From positions 1-61,952 of the forward strand of contig CAXMQY010000127.1 of assembly GCA_964195735.1 (NCBI GenBank): a stretch of DNA of 61,952 bases, read 5' to 3'. Positions 21,431-36,810 of the stretch are shown here, one piece after another. Made by a program: the position numbers and the translations under genes. Within the stretch, counting starts at the first letter, position 1. Every line of letters begins with the position of its first letter. The notes under the pieces were generated by a model. That model worked only from the letters and a program-made list of their open reading frames with translations. It ran no database searches and had not been told where the DNA came from. Origin of the DNA: an uncultured Haliangium sp. (GTDB lineage: Bacteria > Pseudomonadota > Gammaproteobacteria > GCA-001735895).

Positions 21431-23470
21431 TCAGGAATCCTGATCGTCGAGTTGCGACCAGCCCGCGGCCGGCTGGAAACGCTCGCCGAAGCGAGATTCG
21501 TATTCCTTCATCGAAGCGACGATCGCAACGATACCTTCACTCAGGCTGTAATTCATCGGCCCACCGCGAAACGGGGCGAAACCAGTGCCGAAGATAATGC
21601 CGGCATCGAGCAAATCACTGTCGGCGACGATTTCTTCCTGCAGGCAGGCGGCGGCCTCGTTCAAAAACCGAAACACCAGCCGGTTCTGGATCATCTTCTG
21701 ATCACCCAGGTCAACATCCTTGTCCTGTACCGGTTTTCCTTTTTTATAGGTATAGAATCCACGTCCTGATTTCTTACCGAGGTGCTTCGCATCGACAAAC
21801 CGGTTCAATCCCGCTGGCACTGCGGTTCCGTAAGCCTCGGACAGGTTCTGCGCCACCGACAGGCAGATATCGAGACCGACGGTATCGGCCAGTTCCACCG
21901 GTCCCATCGGCATGCCGAAATCGACCGCGGCCTTGTCGATGGCTTCGGGCGCGACACCCTCGTCGTAGAGCGTAAAGGCCTCCACCAGGTAGGGCATCAG
22001 GATGCGGTTGACCAGGAATCCGGGCGAGCTCTTGACCGGTAACGGCAACTTGCCGATGTGCTGGGTAAAGGCGATCGCCTGTTGCTGGGTTTGCTCGGAG
22101 GTCTGCGCCGAACTGACGATCTCGACCAGCGGCATCATCGCAACCGGGTTGAAAAAGTGCACCCCTACCAGGCGCTCGGGTTGCTTTAGCGCGGTCGCCA
22201 GTGTTTCCAGTGGAATGCTCGAGGTATTGGTGGCGAGTACCGCATCAGGCTTCATACGCACCTCGACGTCGCGGTAAATGGCTTGCTTGGCATCGACGTC
22301 CTCGAAAATCGCTTCGATGATCACATCGGCTTTGGCGACACCGTCGCCGGGCACATCCGGAATCAGGCGATCGATGGCCGCGTTGCGCTCGGCGGTAATC
22401 TTCAGGCGCTTGCCAAAGAGCTGATGGGCGCGTTTGAAGGCATTGCTCAGGAACTTCGTTTCCCGATCCTGCAGGGTAACGGTAAAACCGCGCAGCGCGC
22501 ACCAGGCCGCAATGTCGCCGCCCATGGTGCCTGCGCCTATGACATGCACATGCCGCGGTACGAACGATTTCTTGTCGCCGAGCCCCTTCAGTCGTGTCTG
22601 CAGAAAGAATACCCGGATCAGATTGCGCACCGTGTCGCCCTGGATCAAGAGCGCGACCGAATTCGCCTCTTCATCCATCATGCGCTTGTGGTTGCCGTAA
22701 TAATTGGCCCACACATCAAGAATTGCGTATGGGGCAGGGTAGTGCTGTCGTGGTGCTTTTTTCGCGACCTGTTTTTTCATGTATTTGGCGAGCAGGCTGC
22801 GTATTCCCGGCAGCGATAGCGCCTTGCCGAGCAGGGGCATGCGCTGCCGCTGCGGTGGCGTCAGCGCAATACTGCGCACGGCTCGCTCGATCTGGCGTTC
22901 TGGCTGCGCGATGTCGACCAGGCCGATGGCGCGCGCGGCGCGCGCCGACAGAGCCCGGCCGGTCAGCATTAATTCGAGCGATTTCAATGGATTAATGATG
23001 GCAGTCGAGCGCACCAGGCCACCATAGGCCGGATGTATGCCGAGCTTCACTTCGGGCAGGCCGATACGGGTCGCGCGATCGTCGAGCGCGACGCGGTAAT
23101 CGCAGGCCAGCGCGAGCTCCGTTCCGCCACCCATGCAGAAGCCTTCGATCATGGCAACCGTCGGACAGGACAGGTCGGCAATGCGGCTGAACAGCTTCTG
23201 CCCGCGCTTGATCATAATCAACGCGTCCTGGGTCGTCTCGATCTCGAGAAATTCATTGACGTCGGCACCTGCGATGAATCCGCCTGTCTTTGCGGAGCGA
23301 AATACCAGCGCCCGGGGTAGGCTTTGCTCAATCTCGTCGAGCAAGCCGTCGAGTTGTTCCAGCACGCTGATCGAGAGCACATTAGTATCGGTATTCTGCT
23401 TGTCGAGGATGAGCCAGCGTATGCCGTCGTCATCTACCTGGCTTTGCCAATCGGAAGCGCTTGCGTTCAT
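21431..23470 (-). CDS. fadJ: Fatty acid oxidation complex alpha subunit (enoyl-CoA hydratase/3-hydroxyacyl-CoA dehydrogenase)
   Basis: FIAGAD, GGGTELALAC, GLPEVKLG, GAGTMGG, NTSS, HFFNP and PGFLVNR motifs. ATG 23470 overlaps the thiolase stop. Confidence 0.85.
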   Translation of the reverse strand: MNASASDWQSQVDDDGIRWLILDKQNTDTNVLSISVLEQLDGLLDEIEQSLPRALVFRSAKTGGFIAGADVNEFLEIETTQDALIMIKRGQKLFSRIADLSCPTVAMIEGFCMGGGTELALACDYRVALDDRATRIGLPEVKLGIHPAYGGLVRSTAIINPLKSLELMLTGRALSARAARAIGLVDIAQPERQIERAVRSIALTPPQRQRMPLLGKALSLPGIRSLLAKYMKKQVAKKAPRQHYPAPYAILDVWANYYGNHKRMMDEEANSVALLIQGDTVRNLIRVFFLQTRLKGLGDKKSFVPRHVHVIGAGTMGGDIAAWCALRGFTVTLQDRETKFLSNAFKRAHQLFGKRLKITAERNAAIDRLIPDVPGDGVAKADVIIEAIFEDVDAKQAIYRDVEVRMKPDAVLATNTSSIPLETLATALKQPERLVGVHFFNPVAMMPLVEIVSSAQTSEQTQQQAIAFTQHIGKLPLPVKSSPGFLVNRILMPYLVEAFTLYDEGVAPEAIDKAAVDFGMPMGPVELADTVGLDICLSVAQNLSEAYGTAVPAGLNRFVDAKHLGKKSGRGFYTYKKGKPVQDKDVDLGDQKMIQNRLVFRFLNEAAACLQEEIVADSDLLDAGIIFGTGFAPFRGGPMNYSLSEGIVAIVASMKEYESRFGERFQPAAGWSQLDDQDS

Positions 23471-24774
23471 GACGGACTCCTCTGCAGCAACATCGCGCCG
23501 CCCTGACCACCGCCAATGCACAGCGAAGCGATCCCGGTGGCGGCATTTTTCTGTTCCAGCACCCTGGCCAGGTGCAACACGATTCGTGCACCGCTGGCGC
23601 CGACCGGATGGCCCAGGCTGACGCCGCCACCGTGAATATTGAGCCGATCGGCTGGAATTTCACCAACCGAGCTGCGCAACCCCAGTTGTTGTTTACAATA
23701 ATCCTTGTCATTCAGCGCTGCGAGCACGGCCAGCACCTGCGCCGCGAAGGCTTCGTTGATTTCCCAATAGTCAACATCGGTGACCTTGAGCCGCTGCGAT
23801 TTCAACAGCGGTGCGATTGAATGCGCTGGCCCGAGGCCCATCTCGGCCGGATCGAGCGCCGCCCATTCAGTCGAAACCAGCCGGGCCATGACCTTCAGGT
23901 CATGTTTTTCCACCGCGGCTTCGCTCGCGAGTATCAGCGCCGCAGCGCCATCGGTAATCTGTGCGCTGTTGCCGGGTGTCACCAGGCCGAAAGGCTTGTC
24001 GAAAGCAGGGCGCAGTTTGGCGAGTTTTTCCAGGCTGGAATCGGGTCGTACCCCGTCATCGTGGTCATAGACATTGCCCTGTGCGTCGTACAGCGGCACC
24101 ACCTCGCTCAACTCGTTGTTTTGCTGAGCCTGGTGCAGTTTCTGATGGCTTTCCAACGCAAACTGGTCCATTTGCTCACGCGTGATACCGAAACGGTAAG
24201 CGATCTGTTCGGCTGTTTGTCCCATGTTGAGTCCGACCACCGGATCGGTCAGCCCTTTGAGTAAAGCGATTACTGGTGCGAATAGTCCAGGTCTCAATTT
24301 CGTCAGCAGCTTGAATCGCTGTCCGATCGACTTCGCTGCCCACCAGTCGGCCAGCCAGCTCACCATTTTCGGGTGAAATAACAGCGGAGCCTGGCTCATC
24401 GCCTCGATACCACCCGCTAGCACCAGGTCGGAGCGCCCGCTTGCAATTGACATCGCCGCGTTGTCGAGTGCCTGCATGCCCGAGGCACAATTTCGCTGTA
24501 CCGTGTACGCCGGCATCGTATCGCCACAGCCGAGCCGCAGGGCAACGATACGCGCGATATTGGCCTCGTCCGGACCGGGCATGGTCGCACCGAAAATAAC
24601 CTCGTCAATTTCTGTCGCATCGAAGGGCATGCGTACCAGTAGCGCGCGCGCGGCGGCTATGCCGAGATCAGCGTGTTTGAAAGGCCCCGGTTTTCCGCGC
24701 GCCTTGATAAAAGGCGTGCGACTACCATCTACTAGGTAGACGGGCTTGGCGTATTTTTTTTTGGTGGCGGCCAT
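23467..24774 (-). CDS. fadI: Acetyl-CoA C-acyltransferase (thiolase)
   Basis: RNCASG, NEAFAAQ, GHPVGASG and CIGGGQG motifs; coupled to the FadJ-like gene. Confidence 0.85.
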   Translation of the reverse strand: MAATKKKYAKPVYLVDGSRTPFIKARGKPGPFKHADLGIAAARALLVRMPFDATEIDEVIFGATMPGPDEANIARIVALRLGCGDTMPAYTVQRNCASGMQALDNAAMSIASGRSDLVLAGGIEAMSQAPLLFHPKMVSWLADWWAAKSIGQRFKLLTKLRPGLFAPVIALLKGLTDPVVGLNMGQTAEQIAYRFGITREQMDQFALESHQKLHQAQQNNELSEVVPLYDAQGNVYDHDDGVRPDSSLEKLAKLRPAFDKPFGLVTPGNSAQITDGAAALILASEAAVEKHDLKVMARLVSTEWAALDPAEMGLGPAHSIAPLLKSQRLKVTDVDYWEINEAFAAQVLAVLAALNDKDYCKQQLGLRSSVGEIPADRLNIHGGGVSLGHPVGASGARIVLHLARVLEQKNAATGIASLCIGGGQGGAMLLQRSPS

Positions 24775-25492
24775 CTGCGATCTCGGAGTGAAGGATACTC
24801 AGTTTATAACTTAAAGCCGGAATCATAAACCATCATAAAGTAGTTTTGAAATGAAACCTTTGGTTCGTGTTAAACCGAAGTTCTGACACTAGACAGGAAA
24901 GAGGAAAAGAAGCGGCGACGATAATCTTTTATGGCTTTCCAGTGCCGATATATCTGATTAGGTAAGTAGGCGATGTCGCGAACGCCTTCATCATTCGTTT
25001 TGCACTAACCTTGAAATAACAACCCTGGCCTTGCCAGCCAACTCCTTATCCGTACCGAGCCCGGCAAAGGCGATTGCAAACTCGAATATCGATTTCCGGA
25101 GCTATGGCTATGCCTGTGTTAGCCGTGAAATAGACTGGCCATTCGCAGGCCCGGGTAACGCCATCCAATCACCAATCGTTTCGCGACCCGGTTTACGGTT
25201 TGCCCCTGGTTGTTCGACCACTAGCATAAAATCGCGAGTTTCTCCGGCGCCGATTTTCCCCTGTATCCACCGTAAAAGCTTTACATACCGCCGTTTTGAC
25301 CTATAGATACAAGTCTGATGCACAATCGATTGACCCAGTCACGATAACTGCCACAGACCGAACAGCGAATTCAATTTACAAGCAGAAGTGGATTGAAATT
25401 GACAGGCAGAAGTGTAGTGAGCGAGTTTCTGGATAGATACTGACAAACCGTCAGGACGATTCGGACCCGAGCGGGAGACAGAGGTTACAAAA

Positions 25493-26260
25493 TTGGAAGA
25501 GAAGGTTAAATTGAGCCACATCGGGCTTTCCGAACTGGAAGTCAGGGTACTTAAAAGCATTTTCACCCTGGCTCCGCAACTCAACGAAAACTACAGCCTG
25601 ATTTCTCCCGAGCTCATACACGCGGCAGATGTCATCCTGGTCAATGCCGACGACGCCGACATTCTGCGCAAGTGGCAAAGTATTACTGCGAACAACAAGC
25701 TGACCAGTTCATTGATGTTGACCGACCAGGGTGAATCGAAACTGGGCGATCTCACCATCCAGCGTCCGATCCGCGTACAGAAACTCGTTTCGGCCCTGGA
25801 AGACCTCGTGGCGCAAACCTGCATCGATCTCAGTGAGGCGGAGGCCGGCGCGGAATTTTGCATCATGGTTGTGGACGATAGCTTCCCGGTCAGAAAGTTC
25901 ATGAAACACAAGTTACACCAATTGATAAAAGCACCGATCAAGCTGCACCTCGCCGCCAGCGGTGAAGAGGCAATGCGCAAACTCGTGCGCATCGATTGCG
26001 ACATTATCTTTCTCGACGTGATGATGGAAGGCGTGGACGGTTACAAGGTTTGCAAAGCCATCAAGGCCAGTAGCGACACCTACGTCGTCATGCTGACCAG
26101 CAAGAAATCACCCTTTGACAAGGTGCGCGGCACCATGTCCGGTTGCGACGCCTATGTGACCAAGCCGCCCTCGGATGAAAAGCTGATCGAAGCCGTCAAT
26201 AAGTACGCGGCTCGTCATGAGGAATTTCAGGTCGATGTCGCAACCATGGGAGCGGGGTAG
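25493..26260 (+). CDS. PilG-like response regulator with an N-terminal pseudo-receiver domain
   Basis: C-terminal REC domain: VVDDS, FLDVMM, MLTSKKSPFDKVRG, YVTKP. TTG start with GAGG upstream. Confidence 0.8.
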   Translation: MEEKVKLSHIGLSELEVRVLKSIFTLAPQLNENYSLISPELIHAADVILVNADDADILRKWQSITANNKLTSSLMLTDQGESKLGDLTIQRPIRVQKLVSALEDLVAQTCIDLSEAEAGAEFCIMVVDDSFPVRKFMKHKLHQLIKAPIKLHLAASGEEAMRKLVRIDCDIIFLDVMMEGVDGYKVCKAIKASSDTYVVMLTSKKSPFDKVRGTMSGCDAYVTKPPSDEKLIEAVNKYAARHEEFQVDVATMGAG

Positions 26261-26331
26261 CGTCTTTATTTTTGAGCCAGATTCGAGAAAGCAACTATAA
26301 GTCTAAACAACAGCACCAGGGAGAAGAGACA

Positions 26332-26697
26332 ATGGCAGGCAAGAAAGTACTGGTAGTCGATGACACGGCTGCCCATTTGCAGCAGATGAAAGAGATTGTT
26401 TCCGACGCGGGTTACCAGGTTATTACGGCAACATCGGGAAGGGAAGCGGTCGAAAAAACCAGGAAGGAAAAACCCAGTATGGTGTTTCTCGACATCGTAA
26501 TGGATGACCTCGATGGTTACGGGGCCTGCAGGGAAATTACCCGGGATGATGAAACCAGCGGCATACCCGTTGTCTTTGTCAGCACCAAAAACCAGCGCGC
26601 TGACAGAATCTGGGCGGAAAAACAGGGTGCCAAGGCATTGCTGACGAAACCCGCCAATTCGGCTGAAATTGTCGACAGCCTGAAAATGTATACCTAG
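26332..26697 (+). CDS. PilH/CheY-like single-domain response regulator
   Basis: KKVLVVDD, FLDIVM, IPVVFVSTKNQRADRIWAEKQGA..LLTKP (PilH-like). ATG 26332 follows GGAGA. Confidence 0.88.
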   Translation: MAGKKVLVVDDTAAHLQQMKEIVSDAGYQVITATSGREAVEKTRKEKPSMVFLDIVMDDLDGYGACREITRDDETSGIPVVFVSTKNQRADRIWAEKQGAKALLTKPANSAEIVDSLKMYT

Positions 26698-26703
26698 ATA
26701 AAG

Positions 26704-27249
26704 TTGGAAATTCGAATTCAGAAGAGTGCAGATGCGATGCGACCAAGCGAAGCCCTGAACCGGGAATTTATTCTGGCTGACATACCACAGCCAGAACAAC
26801 AGGCCGGCGACGGGAAAACACGGGGAATTACCACCCATGCCGTTCTGGTAGGAAATATCGGATTGTTACTGCCGCGTAGAGAAGTAAGTGAACTGGTCGA
26901 AAATCAGGCGATCTGCCAGCTGCCGAATACATCGACATGGTTCAACGGCGTTACCAGCGTCCGCGGAAACATGATTCCCATTTTCGATTTGCACAGGCTG
27001 TTCGACATTGGTCACCAGGACAATCGTCGCAGGATGATTGTGGTTGGTGAGGCGGAGAAGGCTGTTGCCTTCTGGGTTGACGAGATGCCGCGCATGGTGT
27101 CCGTCAGTGAGGATGACGTCATGAGCAGTGCGCCGCCCATACCGTCATTGATCAAGGATCACTCCCAGCGATTTTTTTTAAAGGACAGTCAAATCTGGAT
27201 CGACTGGGACGTCAGGGCTTTCTTCATGGCCCTGGGTAATCTTATATAA
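26704..27249 (+). CDS. CheW family protein (PilI-like)
   Basis: LPNTSTWFNGVTSVRGNMIPIFDL CheW signature. Confidence 0.88.
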   Translation: MEIRIQKSADAMRPSEALNREFILADIPQPEQQAGDGKTRGITTHAVLVGNIGLLLPRREVSELVENQAICQLPNTSTWFNGVTSVRGNMIPIFDLHRLFDIGHQDNRRRMIVVGEAEKAVAFWVDEMPRMVSVSEDDVMSSAPPIPSLIKDHSQRFFLKDSQIWIDWDVRAFFMALGNLI

Positions 27250-27314
27250 AGCACGATCGCGGGCCTCGCAGCCGGCAAGCCCCTATCGGAAAACTTATCT
27301 GGAGTAGTAACGAG

Positions 27315-27890
27315 ATGTATAAAAGAATTCTATTGATACTTGTTCTGTTAGTCCCCGGCTTGCTGCAGGCTGAGGTCGAGTTGAGCCAGCAAGAAATTAA
27401 CGATCTGCTGGGAGTAAAAATTCGGTTTGCTACGCATATGGCATTCAACCCCAGTGTTATTCGCGCAGTCGCAGTACAAAACGACGAGACGGTCTCACTG
27501 GCCGAAATAAAGCAGCGTGACCAGGACTGGAAGAATGCCGACGGTAATCCGATCGCTCTTATTCGCGAAATCACCAGCAACGACGTGGCCAGATACTTCC
27601 AGCGCCGGGTTGAAAACAACGTTGCCATCGACGAAGTGTTCCTGACGGACAACCAGGGCGCCAATGTCGCTGCCTATCCGGCCACCAGTGACTACTGGCA
27701 GGGCGACGAAGACAAGTGGACCATGTCGTATAACGACGGTAATGGCGAGGTGTTTATCGGGCCACTGGAATACGACGACAGTACCCAAAAAACCCAGGTG
27801 CAAATCAGTGCGCCGATCATTTCCAACGATGAAACCATCGGCGTACTGGTGCTGGGTGTATCGGTCGATTACCTGGTCACCAGGCAGTAG
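27315..27890 (+). CDS. Secreted stand-alone Cache/PDC-like sensor domain protein
   Basis: Signal peptide MYKRILLILVLLVPGLLQA; EVFLTDNQGANVA..TSDYWQGDEDKW..QISAPI..IGVLVLGV resembles a Cache/PDC fold; GGAG RBS. Confidence 0.72.
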   Translation: MYKRILLILVLLVPGLLQAEVELSQQEINDLLGVKIRFATHMAFNPSVIRAVAVQNDETVSLAEIKQRDQDWKNADGNPIALIREITSNDVARYFQRRVENNVAIDEVFLTDNQGANVAAYPATSDYWQGDEDKWTMSYNDGNGEVFIGPLEYDDSTQKTQVQISAPIISNDETIGVLVLGVSVDYLVTRQ

Positions 27891-27986
27891 CTGAATGGTT
27901 CCAGGATGGAATCAATCACTTTTATGGGCAAACTGCGGCGCCAGATTTTAAGCTTTTGAAAACACTATTGATTCAGGAATACAGTT

Positions 27987-29789
27987 ATGTTTAGCAATAT
28001 CAGAATTGGTCGGCGCCTCATGATCCTTATCAGTGTACTGACACTGATCTTTGTCTCGACGGGTGCGGTAACACTGGTGGGTATGTCGGATATGTCAAAC
28101 GACACGTCTGAACTGAATGCGAAAACGGCGGAAGCTGCGGCCTTCGTAAAACTCGCTGGATCGGTTCGATTCCACCTGGTTGATGTCAGTCAGCAACTCG
28201 CCTCGGGCATACTGACCTGGCATGAAGCCATACAGCTTCTCGATGCCGGCGCCAGCGAGTTCGACACGCTGTGGGATCGACAAAGGGCACGGTATGCAGT
28301 CAGCCCTGATGACGTAGAATTCTTTACCGATGCTTTCGGTATCGAAGTCAGCCTGGTCAAGGAAGGATATGTCGACCTCATCAAGATTATCGAGGACGAG
28401 AACCGCGAACTGCTCTCACTATACCTGCGGAACGATGCGCGTGCATATTCAGAGCCATTCCTGAACGCTGCGGATGCCCTGTCCACACTGGGTTCGGTGG
28501 AAGCGCAATCCATTTACGACTCGAGCCAGTACTATGCCAATCTTTACCTGCTGGTGAGTGCCGTGGTGGTCATCTCCGGTCTGTTGATTGCAATCACACT
28601 GGGTCCGATGATCTTCGTTTCGATTACCTCGCCGATCAAGCGCATATCCGAAGTTGTAGGCAAGGTCGCCGATGGTGATCTCGAAGCGCGTACCGGGCTC
28701 GGAAGCCAGGACGAAATCGGGCAGCTGGGACAAGCGTTCGACAAAATGTTGAATGAACGTGTATCCACCATGTCCCAGGTGGAAGAGGAGAACGATAAGC
28801 TCAACAATTCAGTTATCGACCTGCTCGAGGCGGTATCGGACCTGAGTAATCGTGACCTTACCGTGAACGTACCCGTCGCGGAAGACGTAACCGGTCCGGT
28901 GGCCGACGCGATGAACATGATGGCCGCGGAAACCGCGCGTGTACTGGCCGAGATACGCAAAATCTCGCACCAGGTAGCGAGCGCCGCGTCTACTGTCGAG
29001 ACCCAGGGTGGCAAGATCAACCAGTTGGCGGACGACGAGCGACAAATCATTGAAGACACCATGGCAAAACTCGAAGAAGCGTCGAAAACCATGAATATCA
29101 TCGCCCGGCAGGCCAAGGCCAGTAACGAAATTGCCGAGCGCGCTTCCACCTCTACCCGGGAAGCACTGGAAATCGTATCGAGAACCGGTAGCGGCATGAA
29201 CGATATTCGCGAAACCATTTCCGAAACAGAAAAACGCATCAAGCGCCTGGGTGAACGTTCGCAAGAAATCAACGGTGTCGTGGAAATCATCAACAACATC
29301 GCGGAACGTACGCACATACTGGCGCTCAATGCTTCCATGCAGGCGGCCGCGGCCGGTGACGCGGGTCGAGGATTCGCGGTTGTTGCGGACGAGGTACAAC
29401 GCCTCGCCGAATCATCACGTGAATCAACCTCGGAAATCGCGGCACTGGTCAGCAACATCCAGGCCGAAACCGCGGAAACCATGGCGACGATGAACAAGGC
29501 GATAGAGCAGGTGGTCGAAGGTACCGAGCTGGCACAGGCCTCAGGTGTGCAAATGCAACTTACGCAGGAAACAACTGCTGAACTGGTAGCCGCGGTTGAA
29601 CAGATCGCGAAACGTTCGCTGATTCAGGCTCATGTTAGTAACAATCTTCGTGAACAGACCGAACAAGCACAAAAGAGCACTGAAGAAACCAACGTTGAGC
29701 TGAAGTTGCAGACCGCCCAAACCACTAACCTGGTTGAATTCTCCAGGCAGTTACTCGAGTCGGTTAACGTTTTCAAACTGCCCGCGTAA
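27987..29789 (+). CDS. Methyl-accepting chemotaxis protein (PilJ-like)
   Basis: Two TM helices, HAMP (DEIGQLGQAFDKM), signalling tip KRIKRLGERSQEI...LALNASMQAAAAGDAGRGFAVVADEVQRLAE. Confidence 0.93.
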   Translation: MFSNIRIGRRLMILISVLTLIFVSTGAVTLVGMSDMSNDTSELNAKTAEAAAFVKLAGSVRFHLVDVSQQLASGILTWHEAIQLLDAGASEFDTLWDRQRARYAVSPDDVEFFTDAFGIEVSLVKEGYVDLIKIIEDENRELLSLYLRNDARAYSEPFLNAADALSTLGSVEAQSIYDSSQYYANLYLLVSAVVVISGLLIAITLGPMIFVSITSPIKRISEVVGKVADGDLEARTGLGSQDEIGQLGQAFDKMLNERVSTMSQVEEENDKLNNSVIDLLEAVSDLSNRDLTVNVPVAEDVTGPVADAMNMMAAETARVLAEIRKISHQVASAASTVETQGGKINQLADDERQIIEDTMAKLEEASKTMNIIARQAKASNEIAERASTSTREALEIVSRTGSGMNDIRETISETEKRIKRLGERSQEINGVVEIINNIAERTHILALNASMQAAAAGDAGRGFAVVADEVQRLAESSRESTSEIAALVSNIQAETAETMATMNKAIEQVVEGTELAQASGVQMQLTQETTAELVAAVEQIAKRSLIQAHVSNNLREQTEQAQKSTEETNVELKLQTAQTTNLVEFSRQLLESVNVFKLPA

Positions 29790-29867
29790 GACAGCATGGT
29801 GTTTTATCCATTCTGCTGTATCGGGCGATCGCGTTATGTGTGAAATCTCGAACGGAATGTCACAATA

Positions 29868-32800
29868 ATGAGTGAAGTAGAAGCCACCGGTACCGAAGCC
29901 CTGCTGGGCCTGATAAGCATGGCCCTGGACGAGCTTTCGGATGCGGTCATGCTAAGTCAGGTTGAAGAACCGGTGGAGTTGCAGCAAATCTTCTGCAAGC
30001 ACATCGATAATTTGATCGAGGTATCCGAGCAGGCTGGACTTGTCGTCCTGAAAACAATTGCCGAGGGTATGATTATCGACCTGGCCTCAGCCGGAAGCGA
30101 TCTGGATCCGGAACGGGGAATGGATGTCATCGAGTGGCTTTCCAATATTCAGTTGCACCTGTCAATGCCCGACGACGAGGAAAACGTCGAATTGCTGTTA
30201 AGCCCACTGACTGAAGAAAGCCAGGCACTGGTCGCCATTGCCTTGCAGGAGCTTGCCAACAATGGTGGCACAATGGCGATCGGTGGTAGTGGAACTGCCG
30301 TCGATACGACTCCCGAAAGCAGTGTGATTCAAGTGCAGCAAGCTGGCGATATTGAAATCGACCTGGCGGAGTTTCCCGTCGCGAGTAGCGTCGATGAAAA
30401 TCTCGCGGAAAAGGAAGAATCCGGTGCCCTGGAAACAGTCACTTTCGAAGAAAACGAAACTGAATTTGATACCGACGATATTCTGGGGATGCTGGCGTCT
30501 GAACTGCATGAGGTCGCGCCACAGTTAAGTGAACTGGCATTGACCATATCCAACACTTCGAGCGACGAAACTCTGACCCAGGCTGTTGAAAGCTATAGCG
30601 AATTGGTCAGCCGGGTAGGTGCCGTATCGAAGGAGCTGGGGCTGGATGGCCTGATGCTTGTTTGTGATTTTATTCTGAACAATCTGTCGTTACTCGCCAG
30701 CCTGCCTGCCGGGGATCGAATTCTGCCGCTAGACGTGCTGCAAGGCTGGCCGAAAGTGGTTGTCGACCATCTGACCAGCCCGGACGACGACAGCCGCTGT
30801 ATCGCCGTAATCGATTTCCTGGAAAGGGATAGCTGGCCCGAGCCCCTGCCATATCCGGAAATGCGCGGTTTTATCGAAGGCCTGACCAAGGGCCTGGAAC
30901 TGAGTAGCGAATTCGAGGCCGAGCAGCGAGAAATCGAAGCAAGCGCGGACGATGTTTCACTTGAAATGTCGGCCGACGCCAGCCCCGAGTTGATCGATGC
31001 ATTCTTTGCCGAGTCGCCGTCACATGCGGAGAGTTTGTCACGACTGATTTCGGCCATTTCCCGTGGTGAAAAAGTCCAGGAAAACCTCGAAGCGGCGCAA
31101 CGAATCGCACATACCTTGAAAGGCTCCGGTAACCTGGTCGGCCTCAAGGGAATCGCCAATCTCTCGCACCACCTCGAGGATATTTTCGAATACATCGCCA
31201 AACATAAGATTAAACCTCCGCAGATGCTCGCAAACACCATGCAGGAGGTTGCCGATTGCATCGAGACCATGCTCGAATCGCTGCAGGGCATGGCCCCGCC
31301 CCCAGATGACGCGCAGCGCATCCTGCAGGAATTGCTCGACTGGGCCAATCGAATCGACAGCGGAAACCTGCGTGACGCGGATTTCAGCGACGAAGACGCC
31401 AATGCCGCCAACCAGGCGATTTCGGTTGAAGTAGATGAAACCGTCACCGAGGGGCGGATCGAACGACGTCAGAAACCGGATGGCGGGGAACTGGTAGCCG
31501 AGTCCCGTAACGAATCCATCAGGGTTCCGCTCAAGATACTGGACAACATATTCCGGGTAGTCAGTGAAACGGCCATTACCACGGGACAGATTCAGGAGCG
31601 ACTCAATCGCCTCGAGGACAGCGAAAAAATGATTCGCAAAAACGATAATAGCCTGCAGCAGATGCGCTATGAACTCGAAAACCTGGTCAGCATCCGCGGC
31701 ATGGCAGCGCGCCACCGCGGTTCCTCCGGAGACAACAACAAGGATTTTGACCCATTGGAAATGGATGAATACGACGAGTATTACGGTGCAACTCACTCCT
31801 ATATCGAGGGTGTCGCCGATTCGCGTGAGATTCTGCGTTCATTTACCAGTGAGGTCTATGAGCTGAATGCACTATTCCTGATGCAACAGCGCCTCAACAA
31901 GGAATTACAACAGGTTGTCATGACTACCCGAATGGTGCCCGTCAGCATGATATCTGCACGTTTGCAACGTGCGGTACGCCAGGCATGCCGGGCGACCGGA
32001 AAGCAGGCCGAGCTCACCATTGTGGGACAGGAACTGCTGTTGGACGGCGATGTATTGAACAAATTGGCGGACCCGTTGATGCACATGTTGCGCAACGCCG
32101 TCGATCACGGCATCGAAGGATCTGAAGTGCGCCTGGCCAGTGACAAACCGACCAGCGGCCAGATAACCTTGAGTTTCCGGCAGGAAGGGAACAACGTGCT
32201 TGTCCAGTGCAGCGACGATGGCGCGGGACTGAACTATGAGCGCATTCGCAAAACCGCGATAGATAAAGATCTGTTGGGTGAAAGCGAGTCGGTTGACAAC
32301 CCGGCACTGGCACGGATGATTCTGCAACCGGGCTTCTCAACCAGCAAAAATATAACCCAGATTTCGGGTCGAGGGGTTGGCATGGATGTCGTTCACAACA
32401 CGATTCAATCGTTAAATGGCGGCATGGATATCACAGACGCAACAGCAGGTGGAACACAGATTTCGCTGCGAGTGCCGATTACCCTGCTAACCAGTCACTG
32501 CCTGCTCGCGGGCGTTGGCAAGGATCGAATTTTTGCCATACCCACAATCTCGCTGACCCAGATCCTGTCACCCGGCACCGGTAAGATCGGCAAAGTAGGG
32601 GAGCGCCTGTCTTACCAACTGGGCAAAGAAGTCTACGATGCCTGCAGCCTGAATTCTCTGGTCGGAGTTGAGCAACAGAATGGCGGCGATGATATCGAAA
32701 ATTCCAGCGTACTACTGGTTCAGTCAGCTACCGGGATAACCGCAGTGACCGTGGACCGGGTGGTCACCAGCTATGACCTCGTGGTCAAGAACATGGGGGC

Positions 32801-33335
32801 CTACGTAAAGTCGATTACCGGCGTCGCCGGCGTATCCATGCTCGGTGACGGTACTGTGGTTACCGTTCTCGATCTGGCCTCATTGTTACAGGCGCGCAAT
32901 ACAGGTAGTGACGCATACCGGGCCGGCACTAACATGGCGCCGGCAGAAACAGGCGCTACAGCTTTGCCAAAGGTATTGATCGTCGACGATTCACTCAGCG
33001 TGCGTAGCTCTCTGTCCCAGTTGGTGAGCGACGGTGGTTATCGAGTCGTTACCGCAAGAGATGGATTGGAAGCGGTGAGCATGCTCGAAGTCGAAAATCC
33101 GGATATGGTGCTTACCGACCTGGAAATGCCGCGCATGAACGGGCTTGACCTGGCGAGTTACATTCGTCATTCGAATCAGTGGAGCCAATTGCCCATTGTC
33201 ATGATCACTTCCCGCACCATGGCAAAACATCGCGAACAGGCCAGCCAGGCTGGAATCAGCCAGTACATTACCAAGCCGTTTAGCGAAGACGATATATTGG
33301 CATCGATTGGCACCGAACTGGCAATGAGCTCCTGA
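29868..33335 (+). CDS. Hybrid CheA-type histidine kinase (ChpA/PilL-like: Hpt, HATPase, CheW, REC)
   Basis: AHTLKGSG (Hpt), HMLRNAVDHGIE, DDGAG, SGRGVGMDVV, a CheW domain and a C-terminal REC (IVDDS, TDLEMPRMNG, ITKP). Confidence 0.93.
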   Translation: MSEVEATGTEALLGLISMALDELSDAVMLSQVEEPVELQQIFCKHIDNLIEVSEQAGLVVLKTIAEGMIIDLASAGSDLDPERGMDVIEWLSNIQLHLSMPDDEENVELLLSPLTEESQALVAIALQELANNGGTMAIGGSGTAVDTTPESSVIQVQQAGDIEIDLAEFPVASSVDENLAEKEESGALETVTFEENETEFDTDDILGMLASELHEVAPQLSELALTISNTSSDETLTQAVESYSELVSRVGAVSKELGLDGLMLVCDFILNNLSLLASLPAGDRILPLDVLQGWPKVVVDHLTSPDDDSRCIAVIDFLERDSWPEPLPYPEMRGFIEGLTKGLELSSEFEAEQREIEASADDVSLEMSADASPELIDAFFAESPSHAESLSRLISAISRGEKVQENLEAAQRIAHTLKGSGNLVGLKGIANLSHHLEDIFEYIAKHKIKPPQMLANTMQEVADCIETMLESLQGMAPPPDDAQRILQELLDWANRIDSGNLRDADFSDEDANAANQAISVEVDETVTEGRIERRQKPDGGELVAESRNESIRVPLKILDNIFRVVSETAITTGQIQERLNRLEDSEKMIRKNDNSLQQMRYELENLVSIRGMAARHRGSSGDNNKDFDPLEMDEYDEYYGATHSYIEGVADSREILRSFTSEVYELNALFLMQQRLNKELQQVVMTTRMVPVSMISARLQRAVRQACRATGKQAELTIVGQELLLDGDVLNKLADPLMHMLRNAVDHGIEGSEVRLASDKPTSGQITLSFRQEGNNVLVQCSDDGAGLNYERIRKTAIDKDLLGESESVDNPALARMILQPGFSTSKNITQISGRGVGMDVVHNTIQSLNGGMDITDATAGGTQISLRVPITLLTSHCLLAGVGKDRIFAIPTISLTQILSPGTGKIGKVGERLSYQLGKEVYDACSLNSLVGVEQQNGGDDIENSSVLLVQSATGITAVTVDRVVTSYDLVVKNMGAYVKSITGVAGVSMLGDGTVVTVLDLASLLQARNTGSDAYRAGTNMAPAETGATALPKVLIVDDSLSVRSSLSQLVSDGGYRVVTARDGLEAVSMLEVENPDMVLTDLEMPRMNGLDLASYIRHSNQWSQLPIVMITSRTMAKHREQASQAGISQYITKPFSEDDILASIGTELAMSS

Positions 33336-33356
33336 TCAGGGGGCGAGAGATAAACC

Positions 33357-33797
33357 ATGGCGGCAACTAACCTGGCTGTAATCAGTTTTGACGGAGTTCA
33401 CCTGTTGTTGCCGCAGCGAGCTGTAGCTACTGTCGAAATGACCAGCAGCATTATCAGTAATGATATCCATGGAGAATCGATAGGGCAGTTGAAAACGACT
33501 TCGGGTGAGTGGCCGGCATACGCGCTTCAGGCTGATTTCAATGCCTGCACACAGTGTCCAGCTCGATATCGCTACTGTGTCGCAATCAACCAGGATAACC
33601 AGGAAGCCTTTTCCATTGCCTGCGAAGAAGTCAGCTCGATTACCATAGAGAATGAAGATGAACTCAGGCCCTTGCAAACCTGCATGCGTGCTCCGGATAG
33701 TCCGATTGAAGCTGTGATGCTTAAGGGCAACAAGTTGATGCTAGTCAGCAATGTCGAAACCATGCAACGGTTTCTGTCACGGAGGGCCGCGGCGTGA
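33357..33797 (+). CDS. CheW-like protein (ChpC-like)
   Basis: LLLPQRAVATVE start and position directly after the hybrid CheA. Confidence 0.6.
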   Translation: MAATNLAVISFDGVHLLLPQRAVATVEMTSSIISNDIHGESIGQLKTTSGEWPAYALQADFNACTQCPARYRYCVAINQDNQEAFSIACEEVSSITIENEDELRPLQTCMRAPDSPIEAVMLKGNKLMLVSNVETMQRFLSRRAAA

Positions 33798-34267
33798 CGG
33801 CAAGCCAGGCCTGGTTGCTCGACTGCGGCAATTCGCTATCAATCGCTGTCGGATTTCATGAAATGGCGGAGCTATTGCAAAACCATAACAGCTATAGCGT
33901 ACCCGGGTCTCCGGGGTATTGTTCCAGTCTACTGGTCTGGCAGAACAACAGCCTCGTACCGGTAATGGATCTCGCAATGCTATCCGGCAAAAAACAGGCC
34001 GACAATGAAGTCCCTTTCGTTAGCATACTCAGCTACCAGGAAGCGCCGCGGATGCCACTTCAACACCTCGCATTGAAAGTCAAAACGGCACCGCGAAGAA
34101 TCCTGATCGACGATGAGCAGGTTTGTGATTTCCCGCAGGGGCCAAACTTTAGCCTGCTGCGACCGGTCACCTTATCCTCTGTTCTACACGAGGAAAATGC
34201 AGTCATGATTATCGATATCGCACGCCTGTGCTCGGCCGAATTCCGTGACCTGGCAAATGCGGCCTGA
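33794..34267 (+). CDS. CheW-like protein
   Basis: VPGSPGYCSSLLVWQNNSLVPVMDL resembles the CheW core; the GTG overlaps the upstream stop. Confidence 0.7.
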   Translation: MTASQAWLLDCGNSLSIAVGFHEMAELLQNHNSYSVPGSPGYCSSLLVWQNNSLVPVMDLAMLSGKKQADNEVPFVSILSYQEAPRMPLQHLALKVKTAPRRILIDDEQVCDFPQGPNFSLLRPVTLSSVLHEENAVMIIDIARLCSAEFRDLANAA

Positions 34268-34326
34268 AGTGATTTAGCAGAGGCTTACCGCCCGAGCCTG
34301 GGTGTGTAATCGGCAAGCATCGGACA

Positions 34327-34358
34327 AAAGAAACGGCATCCTGGAATGCCGTTTCTTT
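34327..34358. terminator. Bidirectional intrinsic terminator
   Basis: AAAGAAACGGCAT-cctgga-ATGCCGTTTCTTT, 60 bp after the chemosensory operon. Confidence 0.8.
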
Positions 34359-34373
34359 CATCTATTTAAGCTC

Positions 34374-34525
34374 GTCATTGCGGACCCACGGGGCCTAAAT
34401 ACCCAAAGGGCACAAGAGCGCAGCGAAGCAATCTACCGATCCCGAGCCAGCCATATGGAGATTGCTTCGTCACTGCGCTCCTTTATGCCCTTTGGGTATT
34501 TAGGCCCTGTGGGTCTCGCAATGAC
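34374..34525. repeat. Long CGTC-tagged palindromic element (REP doublet)
   Basis: Arms 34374-34434 and 34459-34525 are near-perfect inverted repeats: GTCATTGCG...GAAGCAATCT and AGATTGCTTC...CGCAATGAC. Confidence 0.9.
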
Positions 34526-34562
34526 GGTTGTTGGGCTTAAGTAAGTGCCATTCGGGTCAGAG

Positions 34563-34619
34563 CTAGTCGTAACGACGAATTTGCTCGAGTAATTCCTCGG
34601 CCTGGAAGGGTTTGGTAAT
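34563..34619 (-). pseudogene. Relic C-terminus of a response-regulator receiver domain
   Basis: Minus strand reads ITKPFQAEELLEQIRRYD*, preceded in frame by TAG; no upstream REC sequence is recognisable. Confidence 0.6.
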
Positions 34620-34728
34620 CTAAGACAATTCCTGTCCAGATTTACCTCGCTATCGGGATTAAACGGGGAAACAGGGAAACCCCCGGATTGACTGAAGCAG
34701 CATACCTTACACCTGCATTCCCTATATA

Positions 34729-34756
34729 GATGCGCATAATGTATATTATGTAAAGT
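34729..34756 (+). other. dif: dif site (XerCD chromosome dimer resolution site)
   Basis: GATGCGCATAA-TGTATA-TTATGTAAAGT versus E. coli GGTGCGCATAA-TGTATA-TTATGTTAAAT; intergenic; KOPS polarity flips here. Confidence 0.92.
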
Positions 34757-34956
34757 TGAGCATAAATATTTCCAACCAATAGAATCGAGATTAATGATCG
34801 CCTCAAAAGTATGCCAATCACACGATCAAGTTAGCGTTAACCGCCCTGTTCCGTATATTGAGCTGACTGGCGCAATTTCGTTTCAATTAAATTCGCGTCA
34901 TGGAAACGGCACCCGACAACGTCATGAGGCTGTCATGAGGGACACACACTCTGAAA

Positions 34957-35058
34957 ATGCTGCTACCGCTGCAATTGCTGGCCTACCATATCGCGCTGAT
35001 ACTTGAGTGCGACGTCGACCAACCCCGCAACCTGGCAAAAAGCGTCACTGTGGAATAG
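34957..35058 (+). pseudogene. glmS: Isolated GlmS C-terminal fragment (33 codons; contains the attTn7/TnsD-binding determinant)
   Basis: Translates as [33 protein letters not shown]. An in-frame TGA at 34936-34938 means no longer gene is present. Confidence 0.88.
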
Positions 35059-35158
35059 CCCGTATGGATGATTGCGCCGAGAACCTGGGGCTCCGCTAAC
35101 GGGTTGGGTTATGTATCCGGCGAGAATTGGCACAGCGGATAGTGAGCGACAAGGAGGT

Positions 35159-36208
35159 TCAAGCGCCCGTCGACAAACCGATGCCGCCACGAATCTCGCC
35201 GGATTCAACCGAACCCCACAGAACAGAATGAGATGGCGGCAGCGCCCGATGGGGCGCCGATAACCAGATTCTCCACAGACAGCGCTGCCTGCCGGAACCC
35301 GGATCATCTTCAAAGGCGGTCCTCGAATGGTAGATCACATGGTTATTGATGAACTGAACATCACCCTTGGCAAGCACCATATCAAAATGCTGTTCTTCGG
35401 CGAGCAGCGCGAGAGTATCCAGGGCTTGCCATTGCCTGGGTGAAATTTCCGGGGCCCCCGGTACGTGCTCCAGCGCCTCGATAAAAGTACGGGAGTAGTG
35501 GCTGGTAAACTTTCCATCTCGAACGCCCCAGACCGGCAGCTGGTACCAGGCATTTTCCCCATTCGCCTCTTCACCCACGCGGCTGCGCGGTAAATCACAA
35601 TAGAGTAAATCGCACAATTCGGGGTAGCGCAGCAGCATCTCATTGTGAACCGTGACGGAACTCGCGATTTTGCTTAACCCGCCCCGACTGGCGACGCCGG
35701 TACAAAGCAGCCCTACTATATCGGTGCGGTCGGTGTGGAAGCGCAACTCGGCATTCGATGCTGTTCGGGCGCGTGATGATAAAAATTGCCCATTTTCTGT
35801 TGGCAGCTGTCCGTGGCGCTCGCCAACATCGCCCTCTTCCGCGCGAATTTCTCGTAATAGCTGGCCATCCGAATTCTGGAACACTGGTTGTCCCAGGTGA
35901 CAGGCAAGCCCCATCCAGACAAGCTCGAGATCTTCCCTGGGCCAGCGCTCGACAGGCAAACCTCTCAACCGGACAAATCCACAGCCATCCTCGAGTTCAC
36001 TTGCGATTTTTACAATTTTCGATTTAACGACATCGAGTGGAAAATGGTCAGCGCGAACACTGCGAAAGTTGAGCTTCTTCTCCTTGCAATGTCGAAGTGC
36101 CTCGCCAATTTCATCCAGATCCGATTCTTCCAGGAAATACTGCCAACGTGGATCATCCTTGATGTCCAAACCCTTCCAGGCAGCTTTAGCTTCGATAATT
36201 TCTGTCAT
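35159..36208 (-). CDS. TauD/TfdA family Fe(II)/2-oxoglutarate dioxygenase
   Basis: GCGFVRLRGLP, FHTD (HxD), GGLSKIASS and NNHVIYHSRTAF (distal His/Arg). Confidence 0.88.
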   Translation of the reverse strand: MTEIIEAKAAWKGLDIKDDPRWQYFLEESDLDEIGEALRHCKEKKLNFRSVRADHFPLDVVKSKIVKIASELEDGCGFVRLRGLPVERWPREDLELVWMGLACHLGQPVFQNSDGQLLREIRAEEGDVGERHGQLPTENGQFLSSRARTASNAELRFHTDRTDIVGLLCTGVASRGGLSKIASSVTVHNEMLLRYPELCDLLYCDLPRSRVGEEANGENAWYQLPVWGVRDGKFTSHYSRTFIEALEHVPGAPEISPRQWQALDTLALLAEEQHFDMVLAKGDVQFINNHVIYHSRTAFEDDPGSGRQRCLWRIWLSAPHRALPPSHSVLWGSVESGEIRGGIGLSTGA

Positions 36209-36810
36209 CGATTTGCGTCGACAGCCATGCGGAACCTCAGCTTGTTTTCGACCGCGTCGCGGGTCGGCATGACGCGTTCGGGCTGCTCCGTTGCGACCCG
36301 CACCAGCAAAAAGCGAACCGTTCCGCGGCGCTGAAACCTGTCCCGGATATCCTCGAGCTCATCCTGCGTCGATACCCGCCATGAATTGCGGATGCCGCAG
36401 CCCTTCGCGATGGCACACAGGTCGCTACCGAGACTGGTGTGGCTTGGCTGCATCCCGGTTTCGCCGTAAACCCCATTATCGAGCACCAGTATGGCAAGAT
36501 TCTCGGGCGCCTTCGCCGCCACGGTCGCGAGGCTTCCCATCCCCATCAGCATTTCACCGTCTCCGGTGACTACCAGCACGTCCAGGTCGGGGCGCGCCAG
36601 TGCGAGTCCGAGCCCCGTCGCAACCGCGCCGCCCATCGCGCCCCACAGGTAAAAATTGCGTTCGTGATCCCCGACCGCGGCGACATCATAGGTTGGCGAA
36701 CCCAGCCCGGTGATCACCGCGAGTCCCTCCCGCCCTGCGAGCAAATTACCGACCACCGTTCTGCGTTCCAGTTCGGCTGTCGGCTCCGCCCCCGCGTTCA
36801 CTCTACCCAT
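36205..36810 (-). CDS. TPP-dependent decarboxylase beta subunit (sulfopyruvate/phosphonopyruvate decarboxylase-like)
   Basis: NFYLWGAMG and GDGEMLM...DNGVYGETG TPP-binding motif. Alternative start GTG 36801 overlaps the alpha-subunit stop. Confidence 0.85.
   Translation of the reverse strand: MGRVNAGAEPTAELERRTVVGNLLAGREGLAVITGLGSPTYDVAAVGDHERNFYLWGAMGGAVATGLGLALARPDLDVLVVTGDGEMLMGMGSLATVAAKAPENLAILVLDNGVYGETGMQPSHTSLGSDLCAIAKGCGIRNSWRVSTQDELEDIRDRFQRRGTVRFLLVRVATEQPERVMPTRDAVENKLRFRMAVDANR

Follow-up and report, generated by a model that had tools for sequence, protein, structure and literature searches.

When a gene is lost from a bacterial genome by deletion, part of it may be left behind beside a retained neighbour gene, and pseudogene relics of this kind are ordinary. 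Displaced 3' ends of genes are also known from the borders of integrase-borne genomic islands. Some bacteria (e.g. Burkholderia) have several copies of glmS and hence several attTn7 sites. According to Mitra et al. (2010; PMC2918618), the TnsD site is the final 36 bp of the glmS ORF, which alone suffices to direct Tn7 insertion, and changes at +31, +33, +42, +43, +45, +51 and +54 cause a strong loss of TnsD binding. The chromosomal dif site also receives mobile DNA; the elements of the IMEX type named in a review (PMC5357621) include CTX-phi, TLC-phi, the gonococcal genetic island and EludIMEX-1.

The DNA considered below, referred to as the window, is a stretch of 61,952 nucleotides from an uncultured Haliangium sp., whose assembly (G000) comprises 176 contigs and is 77% complete. 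A first-pass annotation had picked out in it a free-standing mini-ORF resembling the C-terminus of GlmS and had offered three explanations, namely a second or decoy landing pad for Tn7, a small peptide mimicking the GlmS tail, and a remnant of a deleted glmS paralogue or a 3' end displaced by an island. We consider that the mini-ORF is probably a non-functional pseudogene relic, the 3' end of a lost accessory paralogue for which the name glmS2 is introduced here. A literature search (orphan, partial or truncated glmS; second attTn7) found no description of free-standing glmS tails. The features discussed are listed in Table 1.

Table 1. Coordinates of the features discussed, in window positions unless a locus (L) is named.
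Feature	Position	Strand	Basis or remarks
glmS2 relic (orphan 3' end: last 33 codons and TAG)	34957..35058	+	profile, alignment, genus search
TnsD-binding-site equivalent (attTn7 +58 to +23)	35023..35058	+	position mapping against E. coli, after PMC2918618
Chromosomal dif, putative (XerC arm, 6-bp centre, XerD arm)	34729..34756	+	28-mer pattern, synteny, KOPS polarity
Spacer from dif to relic, 200 bp	34757..34956	.	blastn, tblastx
Gap from relic stop to TauD-like gene stop, 100 bp, empty	35059..35158	.	sequence; no blastn or tblastx match
TauD/TfdA-family dioxygenase gene, 349 aa, convergent to relic	35159..36208	-	family scan
Palindromic repeat element	34370..34530	.	arms of 33 nt at 34383-34415 and 34483-34515; genome-dispersed
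Chemosensory cluster, ~10 kb	24860..34700	.	relatives' synteny, family scan, G+C
91-aa ORF upstream of glmS2, in relatives	L022:1173-1448, L023:7865-8140, L081:9336-9611, L082:929-1204		alignment

The frame is present as it had been described: an ATG is followed by 33 codons in all (MLLPLQ...KSVTVE) and a TAG at 35056-35058, and the in-frame stop seven codons 5' of the ATG is a TGA at 34936-34938, giving an open frame of 39 aa. Against the glmS profile TIGR01135 the window's contig yields a single match, at 34942-35055, which covers model positions 570-607 of 607 with an E value of 3.3e-11 and 43.5 bits; this is far beyond chance, and the lack of any other match bears out the remark that the window has no other glmS sequence. 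A full-length GlmS (an N-terminal glutaminase domain and two SIS domains) scores above 418 bits, compared with which the 43.5 bits of the mini-ORF represent a C-terminal tail only, the final 16 residues of which are the same as in intact copies. The E. coli GlmS tail that had been quoted for comparison is consistent with the PDB chains of that enzyme.

In an alignment of the window with four intact glmS2 genes (A1), homology extends from approximately 34955, at conserved internal Met-Leu codons, to the stop, 3' of which every sequence diverges, those of the intact glmS2 genes included. Since the homology begins at these conserved codons, the apparent start codon is an inherited internal Met codon of glmS2 and not a dedicated start. 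This is relevant to the proposal that the 33-residue product is a peptide mimicking the tail of GlmS, which might be thought attractive because the frame runs unbroken from ATG to stop and ends in 16 residues identical to those of functional enzymes. Against it, the Met is inherited, the Shine-Dalgarno-like GAGG ends 16 nt 5' of the ATG (the poor spacing already pointed out in the annotation), which leaves the relic without a usable RBS, the change R16L described below is radical, and none of the 60 other genomes of the genus has the mini-ORF conserved as an ORF standing on its own. A promoter consensus scan of 34268-35260 gave two promoter-like sites where 0.8 was expected from shuffles, which is no excess, and no terminator was found 3' of the mini-ORF in the scan of the same interval. 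We regard a functional peptide as most improbable.

The origin of the tail can be sought amongst the glmS genes of this organism and its relatives. The genome's own canonical glmU-glmS pair lies on contig C96; no other glmS2 sequence, neither a second copy nor a second tail, was found in the assembly, which at 77% completeness could have a full glmS2 elsewhere. The tail of the C96 GlmS is 71% identical to the mini-ORF in amino acids, and 36 of 99 nucleotides differ. The mini-ORF is thus not a copy of the housekeeping gene. Its closest counterparts come from relatives: G005:C427 (91% aa and 84% nt identity) and G004:C45 (82% aa), both of which are the ends of 610-aa open frames. The near-identity to the GlmS C-terminus noticed in the first-pass annotation therefore reflects real homology, but the closest relationship is to an accessory paralogue (91%) and not to the housekeeping enzyme (71%). 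On TIGR01135, for which the cut-off is 418 bits, the G005 protein reaches 740, and the paralogue is therefore a genuine second GlmS, i.e. a glutamine-fructose-6-phosphate transaminase.

A search of 61 genomes of the genus with the G005 protein found glmS2 in five (71-100% identity). Four of them, G005, G054, G004 and G072, have the full-length gene, and in G046 a contig end truncates it. In each of these genomes, where assembled, glmS2 is accompanied by a canonical glmS, to which it is 43-46% identical (44% for the G005 paralogue). The context of glmS2 differs in each of the five carriers, and its flanks bear no relation to the window. When up to 20 kb on either side was compared pairwise in four genomes, glmS2 itself and ~350 nt upstream proved to be all that they have in common. 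The upstream stretch holds an ORF of 91 aa (ending ...QRQIRRIIYG), conserved 5' of every intact glmS2 and without a Pfam or NCBIfam family, and ~50 nt before this ORF there is a near-perfect 20-nt palindrome. These two elements may be a dedicated regulator and its operator. In this genus glmS2 is thus a small movable cassette (palindromic site, 91-aa ORF and glmS2) present in a minority of genomes. A leader RNA upstream of glmS2 was also considered; the idea was dropped, the alignment showing that the conserved stretch is the 91-aa ORF, and Rfam gave no match on two glmS2 loci.

It had been suggested that stand-alone tails be sought near dif in other genomes. A search of the genus with the 33 residues did reveal two other stand-alone tails, each in a short open frame (G043:C76:774-872 and G044:C1:2536378-2536458). 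Six further matches in the genus, judged by their coordinates only, lie in open frames of 101-451 aa and mostly near contig ends. When 48 genomes were searched at the level of the order, of which 13 do not belong to the genus, candidate short-frame matches appeared in G080 (136 aa) and G088 (354 aa). The tails of G043 and G044 are of the glmS2 type and have a common right flank (90% identity over ~860 nt), in which a convergent gene ends ~60 nt 3' of the tail. On the left the two break off at different points, with ~55 codons remaining in G043 and ~27 in G044, and differing left breakpoints together with a common right flank are the pattern expected of erosion from the 5' side. Other orphan tails therefore do exist, but in the DNA inspected they are not beside dif. 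The dif pattern has a single match in G044, 520 kb from the tail in record coordinates, with none in the 18 kb around the tail; in G043 no dif match was found. Because dnaA and the dif-pattern match are only 118 kb apart in the G044 record, map distances there are to be trusted only as 'not adjacent'.

Two observations on these relatives may be added. The close spacing of dnaA and dif is found in a nominally single-contig record (G044:C1, 84% complete), which may be a concatenation rather than a closed chromosome. Separately, the surroundings of the two relics (L096, which is G043:C76, and L097, which is G044:C1:2528000-2546000) have in common a MerR/CueR-like regulator, and the product of the convergent gene has a C-terminus that may be cupredoxin-like; the context suggests a copper-resistance island.

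The extent to which the three tails have decayed can be judged from their sequences. Amongst 20 distinct tails compared, the residue at position 16 is Arg in 17, Lys in two and Leu solely in the window's fragment; the R16L replacement (CGC to CTT) requires two base changes. The G043 tail carries L14P, where the others have Leu or Val, and the G044 tail has four unique changes, the last two residues amongst them. Each of the three orphans thus departs from the other tails at a position that is elsewhere invariant. The comparison of DNA and protein identity (of the dN/dS type) that had been proposed for the window's tail gives a mixed answer. Between the mini-ORF and G005 there are 13 synonymous and three non-synonymous codon differences, which is no different from the pattern between pairs of intact glmS2 genes (15-19 and 1-5, respectively), whereas R16L is unique. 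Since the codon pattern is the same as between intact genes, most of the divergence predates the truncation, and from these comparisons decay beyond the single R16L change is not demonstrable. The mini-ORF nevertheless has what characterizes a pseudogene relic, namely partial homology, a lack of expression signals and relaxed constraint, the last of these resting on one unique substitution in the window and on several in the sibling relics.

The position of the relic was described in the first-pass annotation as 200 bp from dif, and this is exact: the spacer between the 28-mer and the ATG is 200 bp, with the relic on the XerD-arm side. The 28-mer has one match per genome in 18 of 24 genomes of the same genus. 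It adjoins a thiolase gene in five of seven relatives inspected, a contig end removing the left side in the other two; the gene in question (window 23467-24774) is directly left of dif in G006, G002, G014, G046 and G004. The polarity of GGGNAGGG, which we take to be a KOPS-like, FtsK-orienting word, flips at the site, with seven (+) and no (-) occurrences on the left and none (+) and three (-) on the right. On account of the single match per genome, the thiolase synteny and this switch of polarity, the 28-mer would appear to be the chromosome's dif; the GC skew (-0.016 in the left flank and -0.038 in the right) is weak evidence alone.

Both flanks of dif are variable in the genus. On the left, a chemosensory cluster sits exactly between the thiolase gene and dif; it encodes a response regulator, two or three CheW-like proteins, a Cache-domain fragment, an MCP and a CheA-like hybrid kinase of 1155 aa with a receiver domain, and has a G+C content of 51-54% against 57-60% in the flanks. 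On the right, the relatives resume at different points of the window: G006 at the genes of 36.2-38.1 kb, G002 and G005 at an oxidoreductase gene of 805 aa (position 38152), and G014 and G046 at the gene situated at 47.4 kb; G004 and G072 carry DNA that is absent from the window. Neither the relic nor the TauD-like gene is present at dif in the relatives inspected, so that both are specific to this genome. Either side of dif is a hot spot of gene gain and loss in this marine-sediment lineage.

It is conceivable that the closeness to dif is mechanistic, an element of the IMEX type having brought or removed DNA at this place. Genome-specific DNA does lie on both sides of the site, the left insert is of lower G+C content, and known IMEX elements integrate at dif (PMC5357621). 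An element between dif and a second dif-like site would be expected; the window, however, contains no second such site (at up to 10 mismatches over 28 nt the only match is dif itself), and near the island borders (24.8 kb and 36-38 kb) there is no half-site at up to four mismatches over 17 nt. Furthermore, the homology to glmS2 starts 200 bp from dif and not at it, and the other orphan tails are not beside dif. We therefore consider an origin through Xer recombination highly unlikely. Because those other tails lie elsewhere in the DNA inspected, the closeness of the window's relic to dif looks incidental.

The DNA immediately around dif and the tail was compared with the genome and with all fetched loci by blastn and tblastx. 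Neither the spacer (34757-34956) nor the stretch 3' of the tail (35059-35158) gave a match, and the stretch left of dif (34531-34728) gave only short matches to a repeat element, of up to 34 nt. Within the spacer, 34888-34907 is a 20-nt tandem duplication in a strain represented in a run of another study, a non-coding indel polymorphism. The palindromic repeat to the left of these stretches has arms that are 94% complementary, and blastn matches it 27 times in the genome, spread over more than a dozen contigs; in sediment-metagenome contigs its depth is 100-600 against ~9 for its flanks, and in one contig of a relative 34318-34541, which spans it, is skipped. It looks like a MITE- or REP-like element. 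The plant miRNA family MIR840 of Rfam, which matched the repeat with a sub-threshold 67 bits against a gathering score of 150, was judged probably spurious.

To the right, the TauD-like gene gives weak NCBIfam matches to amino-acid beta-hydroxylases (VioC, GntD), far under the cut-offs. Its best match in the genus, in G013, is 61-66% identical and has no glmS tail downstream; the genome collection contains one related locus, with the same coordinates as that of G013 and also without a tail. In the metagenome collection five contigs match at 78% nucleotide identity, the homology ends at the gene borders, and neither glmS2 nor dif is present. One of these five contigs has an internal deletion, and the TauD-like gene behaves as a single-gene variable unit. 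It may also be recorded that there is a 16-nt exact inverted match across dif, between 34600-34615 and 36166-36181 (codons 9-14 of the TauD-like gene), with a weak extension to 26 nt at 85%; this may be due to chance or be the trace of an inversion.

An island of another kind might account for the tail, which would then be the displaced 3' end of a glmS2, or a copy derived from an attP, at the border of an element that integrates site-specifically. It is in keeping with this that exactly the 3' end is what remains in all three orphan fragments of the genus, and that the window's tail is set amongst acquired DNA of lower G+C content. Such an island would comprise an intact target, a displaced 3' end and an integrase; yet no integrase family was found amongst the 17 ORFs scanned (23.4-43 kb), the assembly, as far as its 77% completeness goes, holds no second copy or tail of glmS2, and the tail has no direct repeat in 24.7-36.3 kb. 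In addition, a site-specific crossover would fix the boundary, whereas the breakpoints of G043 and G044 differ. The part of the earlier proposal that saw here a 3' end left by an island thus finds neither integrase, partner copy nor fixed breakpoint, and we consider it unlikely.

A misassembly, which had been named as something that would undo the finding, would also bring together unrelated DNA. The genome is fragmented and only 77% complete, and in public runs the contigs are interrupted within the 30-nt dif core: the left-side contigs end at 34759, and this core, which is common to other organisms, is the only break. On the other hand, Logan contigs from runs of two studies (sediment and marine-sediment metagenomes) run from dif through the tail to the TauD-like gene. 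One covers 34730-36500 with no differences, and the other covers 34730-35522 with one base difference and the 20-nt duplication already mentioned, the tail itself being identical in the two strains; one of the bridging runs may be the source sample. Within each run the depth to the left of dif matches that to the right (9.2 and 9.9 in X1, 9.0 and 9.6 in X2; X6 and X7 cover the tail region poorly and were not used), and the outer flanks keep the synteny of relatives. Misassembly is refuted by the bridging contigs, and the probability that the join is an artefact can be taken as negligible.

The sequence of events that we favour is as follows. In an ancestor, glmS2 would have stood in the variable DNA on the right of dif and in convergent orientation to the TauD-like gene, and a deletion or replacement would then have taken everything 5' of codon -33. 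The 3' tail would have survived because it abuts a retained convergent gene, which a longer deletion would have harmed; and its frame is still open, probably because it is short and the event recent relative to the divergence of glmS2. This reading rests on the greater similarity of the fragment to glmS2 (91% aa) than to the genome's own glmS (71%), on the accessory nature of glmS2, on the sibling relics and on the variable flanks of dif. Of the three explanations first offered, it is therefore the remnant of a deleted paralogue that is upheld, with glmS2 found in five of the 61 genomes (intact wherever a contig end does not cut it), orphan tails in two others and a unique R16L in the window. 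The possibility also raised, that relatives carry a full glmS at this position, found no counterpart: neither in the genus nor in the genome and metagenome collections was an intact glmS2 found here or beside an orthologue of the TauD-like gene, and no longer glmS2 occurs at this place in the Logan contigs. Since no such relative was found, we infer rather than observe the ancestral arrangement, i.e. that a full glmS2 once stood at this place and was lost by deletion.

There remains the suggestion that the tail is an ectopic attTn7-like site. To compare it with that of E. coli, +23 was taken as the last base of the stop codon with the top strand as antisense, a mapping that reproduces on the E. 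coli glmS tail the four bases given in Table 1 of PMC2918618. Ten of the 36 bases of the relic are not those of E. coli, none of them at the seven strong positions, and the modest positions +30, +37, +48 and +52 are all as in E. coli. The same seven strong and four modest positions are kept in four intact glmS2 tails and in the genome's own glmS. They are intact in the relic because all these tails encode the same conserved residues, and the relic is thus, on sequence grounds, a competent attTn7-like site that arises as a passive by-product. The predicted point of insertion, at ~35081 from the +23 mapping, is in the non-coding 100-bp gap. The site is empty, as had been thought, since the stop of the next gene (35159) follows the TAG after 100 bp, too short a distance to accommodate a transposon.

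A stronger version of the suggestion is that the tail has been selected as a second attTn7 or as a decoy, offering a landing pad close to the terminus by which Tn7-like transposons that target glmS are diverted. The sufficiency of the final 36 bp (PMC2918618), the retention in the relic of all 11 strong and modest positions, and an insertion point that would fall in non-coding DNA are all compatible with this. However, the positions are kept in all five other glmS and glmS2 tails compared, which encode the same residues, the tail is at this place in this genome only, and its siblings are decaying, G044 having lost the terminal codons. No Tn7-like element was found in the genome or inserted ~23 bp downstream: TniQ and TnsA-N gave no match in G000 (77% complete, no positive control), nor did TniQ in the 61 genomes of the genus, negatives that are weak because there was no positive control and the control genomes are also without Tn7. 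This search thus showed no Tn7-like element in the relatives. Of this first explanation the preserved TnsD positions stand, but they are preserved in every copy compared and with no sign of selection, and we hold a selected decoy to be very unlikely.

A broader idea is that the orphan glmS2 tails are not random debris but are retained, either as the attachment site of glmS-targeting elements or as the 3' UTR or terminator of the neighbouring gene. The exact 3' end is kept in three of the 61 genomes, at two loci, each time abutting a convergent gene. If tails did serve as attachment sites, islands could be seeded away from the essential glmS, the terminus included; we consider retention of this sort distinctly unlikely. 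The readings as decoy, island border, peptide, product of Xer recombination and artefact are disfavoured because each fails at least one direct test, and the relic of a lost glmS2 is the preferred interpretation.

Compared with the attTn7 of E. coli, as described in PMC2918618, the relic has the homologous 36 bp with all binding-relevant positions unchanged; unlike it, the relic is not part of a working glmS and shows no insertion and no sign of maintenance, and no Tn7-like genes were found in the genome or the genus. With IMEX elements (PMC5357621) the locus has in common foreign-looking DNA directly beside dif, whereas the window is without a second dif-like site and without phage or conjugation genes. 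For annotators and users of mini-Tn7 it follows that a TnsD site can persist, competent by its sequence, in an orphan glmS tail, and that potential attTn7 sites may outnumber glmS genes. In this respect the locus is like bacteria with several glmS genes, in that an extra glmS-type sequence adds a potential Tn7 target, although the copies there are intact and here there are 33 codons. It resembles the 3' ends at island borders in being the free-standing end of a conserved gene, and differs from them in having no integrase, partner copy or fixed breakpoint. The conspicuous 'GlmS tail mini-ORF' beside dif thus probably represents a paralogue relic and not a new targeting or peptide system, and in itself it matters little. 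As a kind of object it is an ordinary gene remnant: with ordinary pseudogene relics it shares one-sided truncation, a retained convergent neighbour, unique radical substitutions and breakpoints that vary between siblings, nothing essential differs, and it is unusual only in its place, 200 bp from dif.
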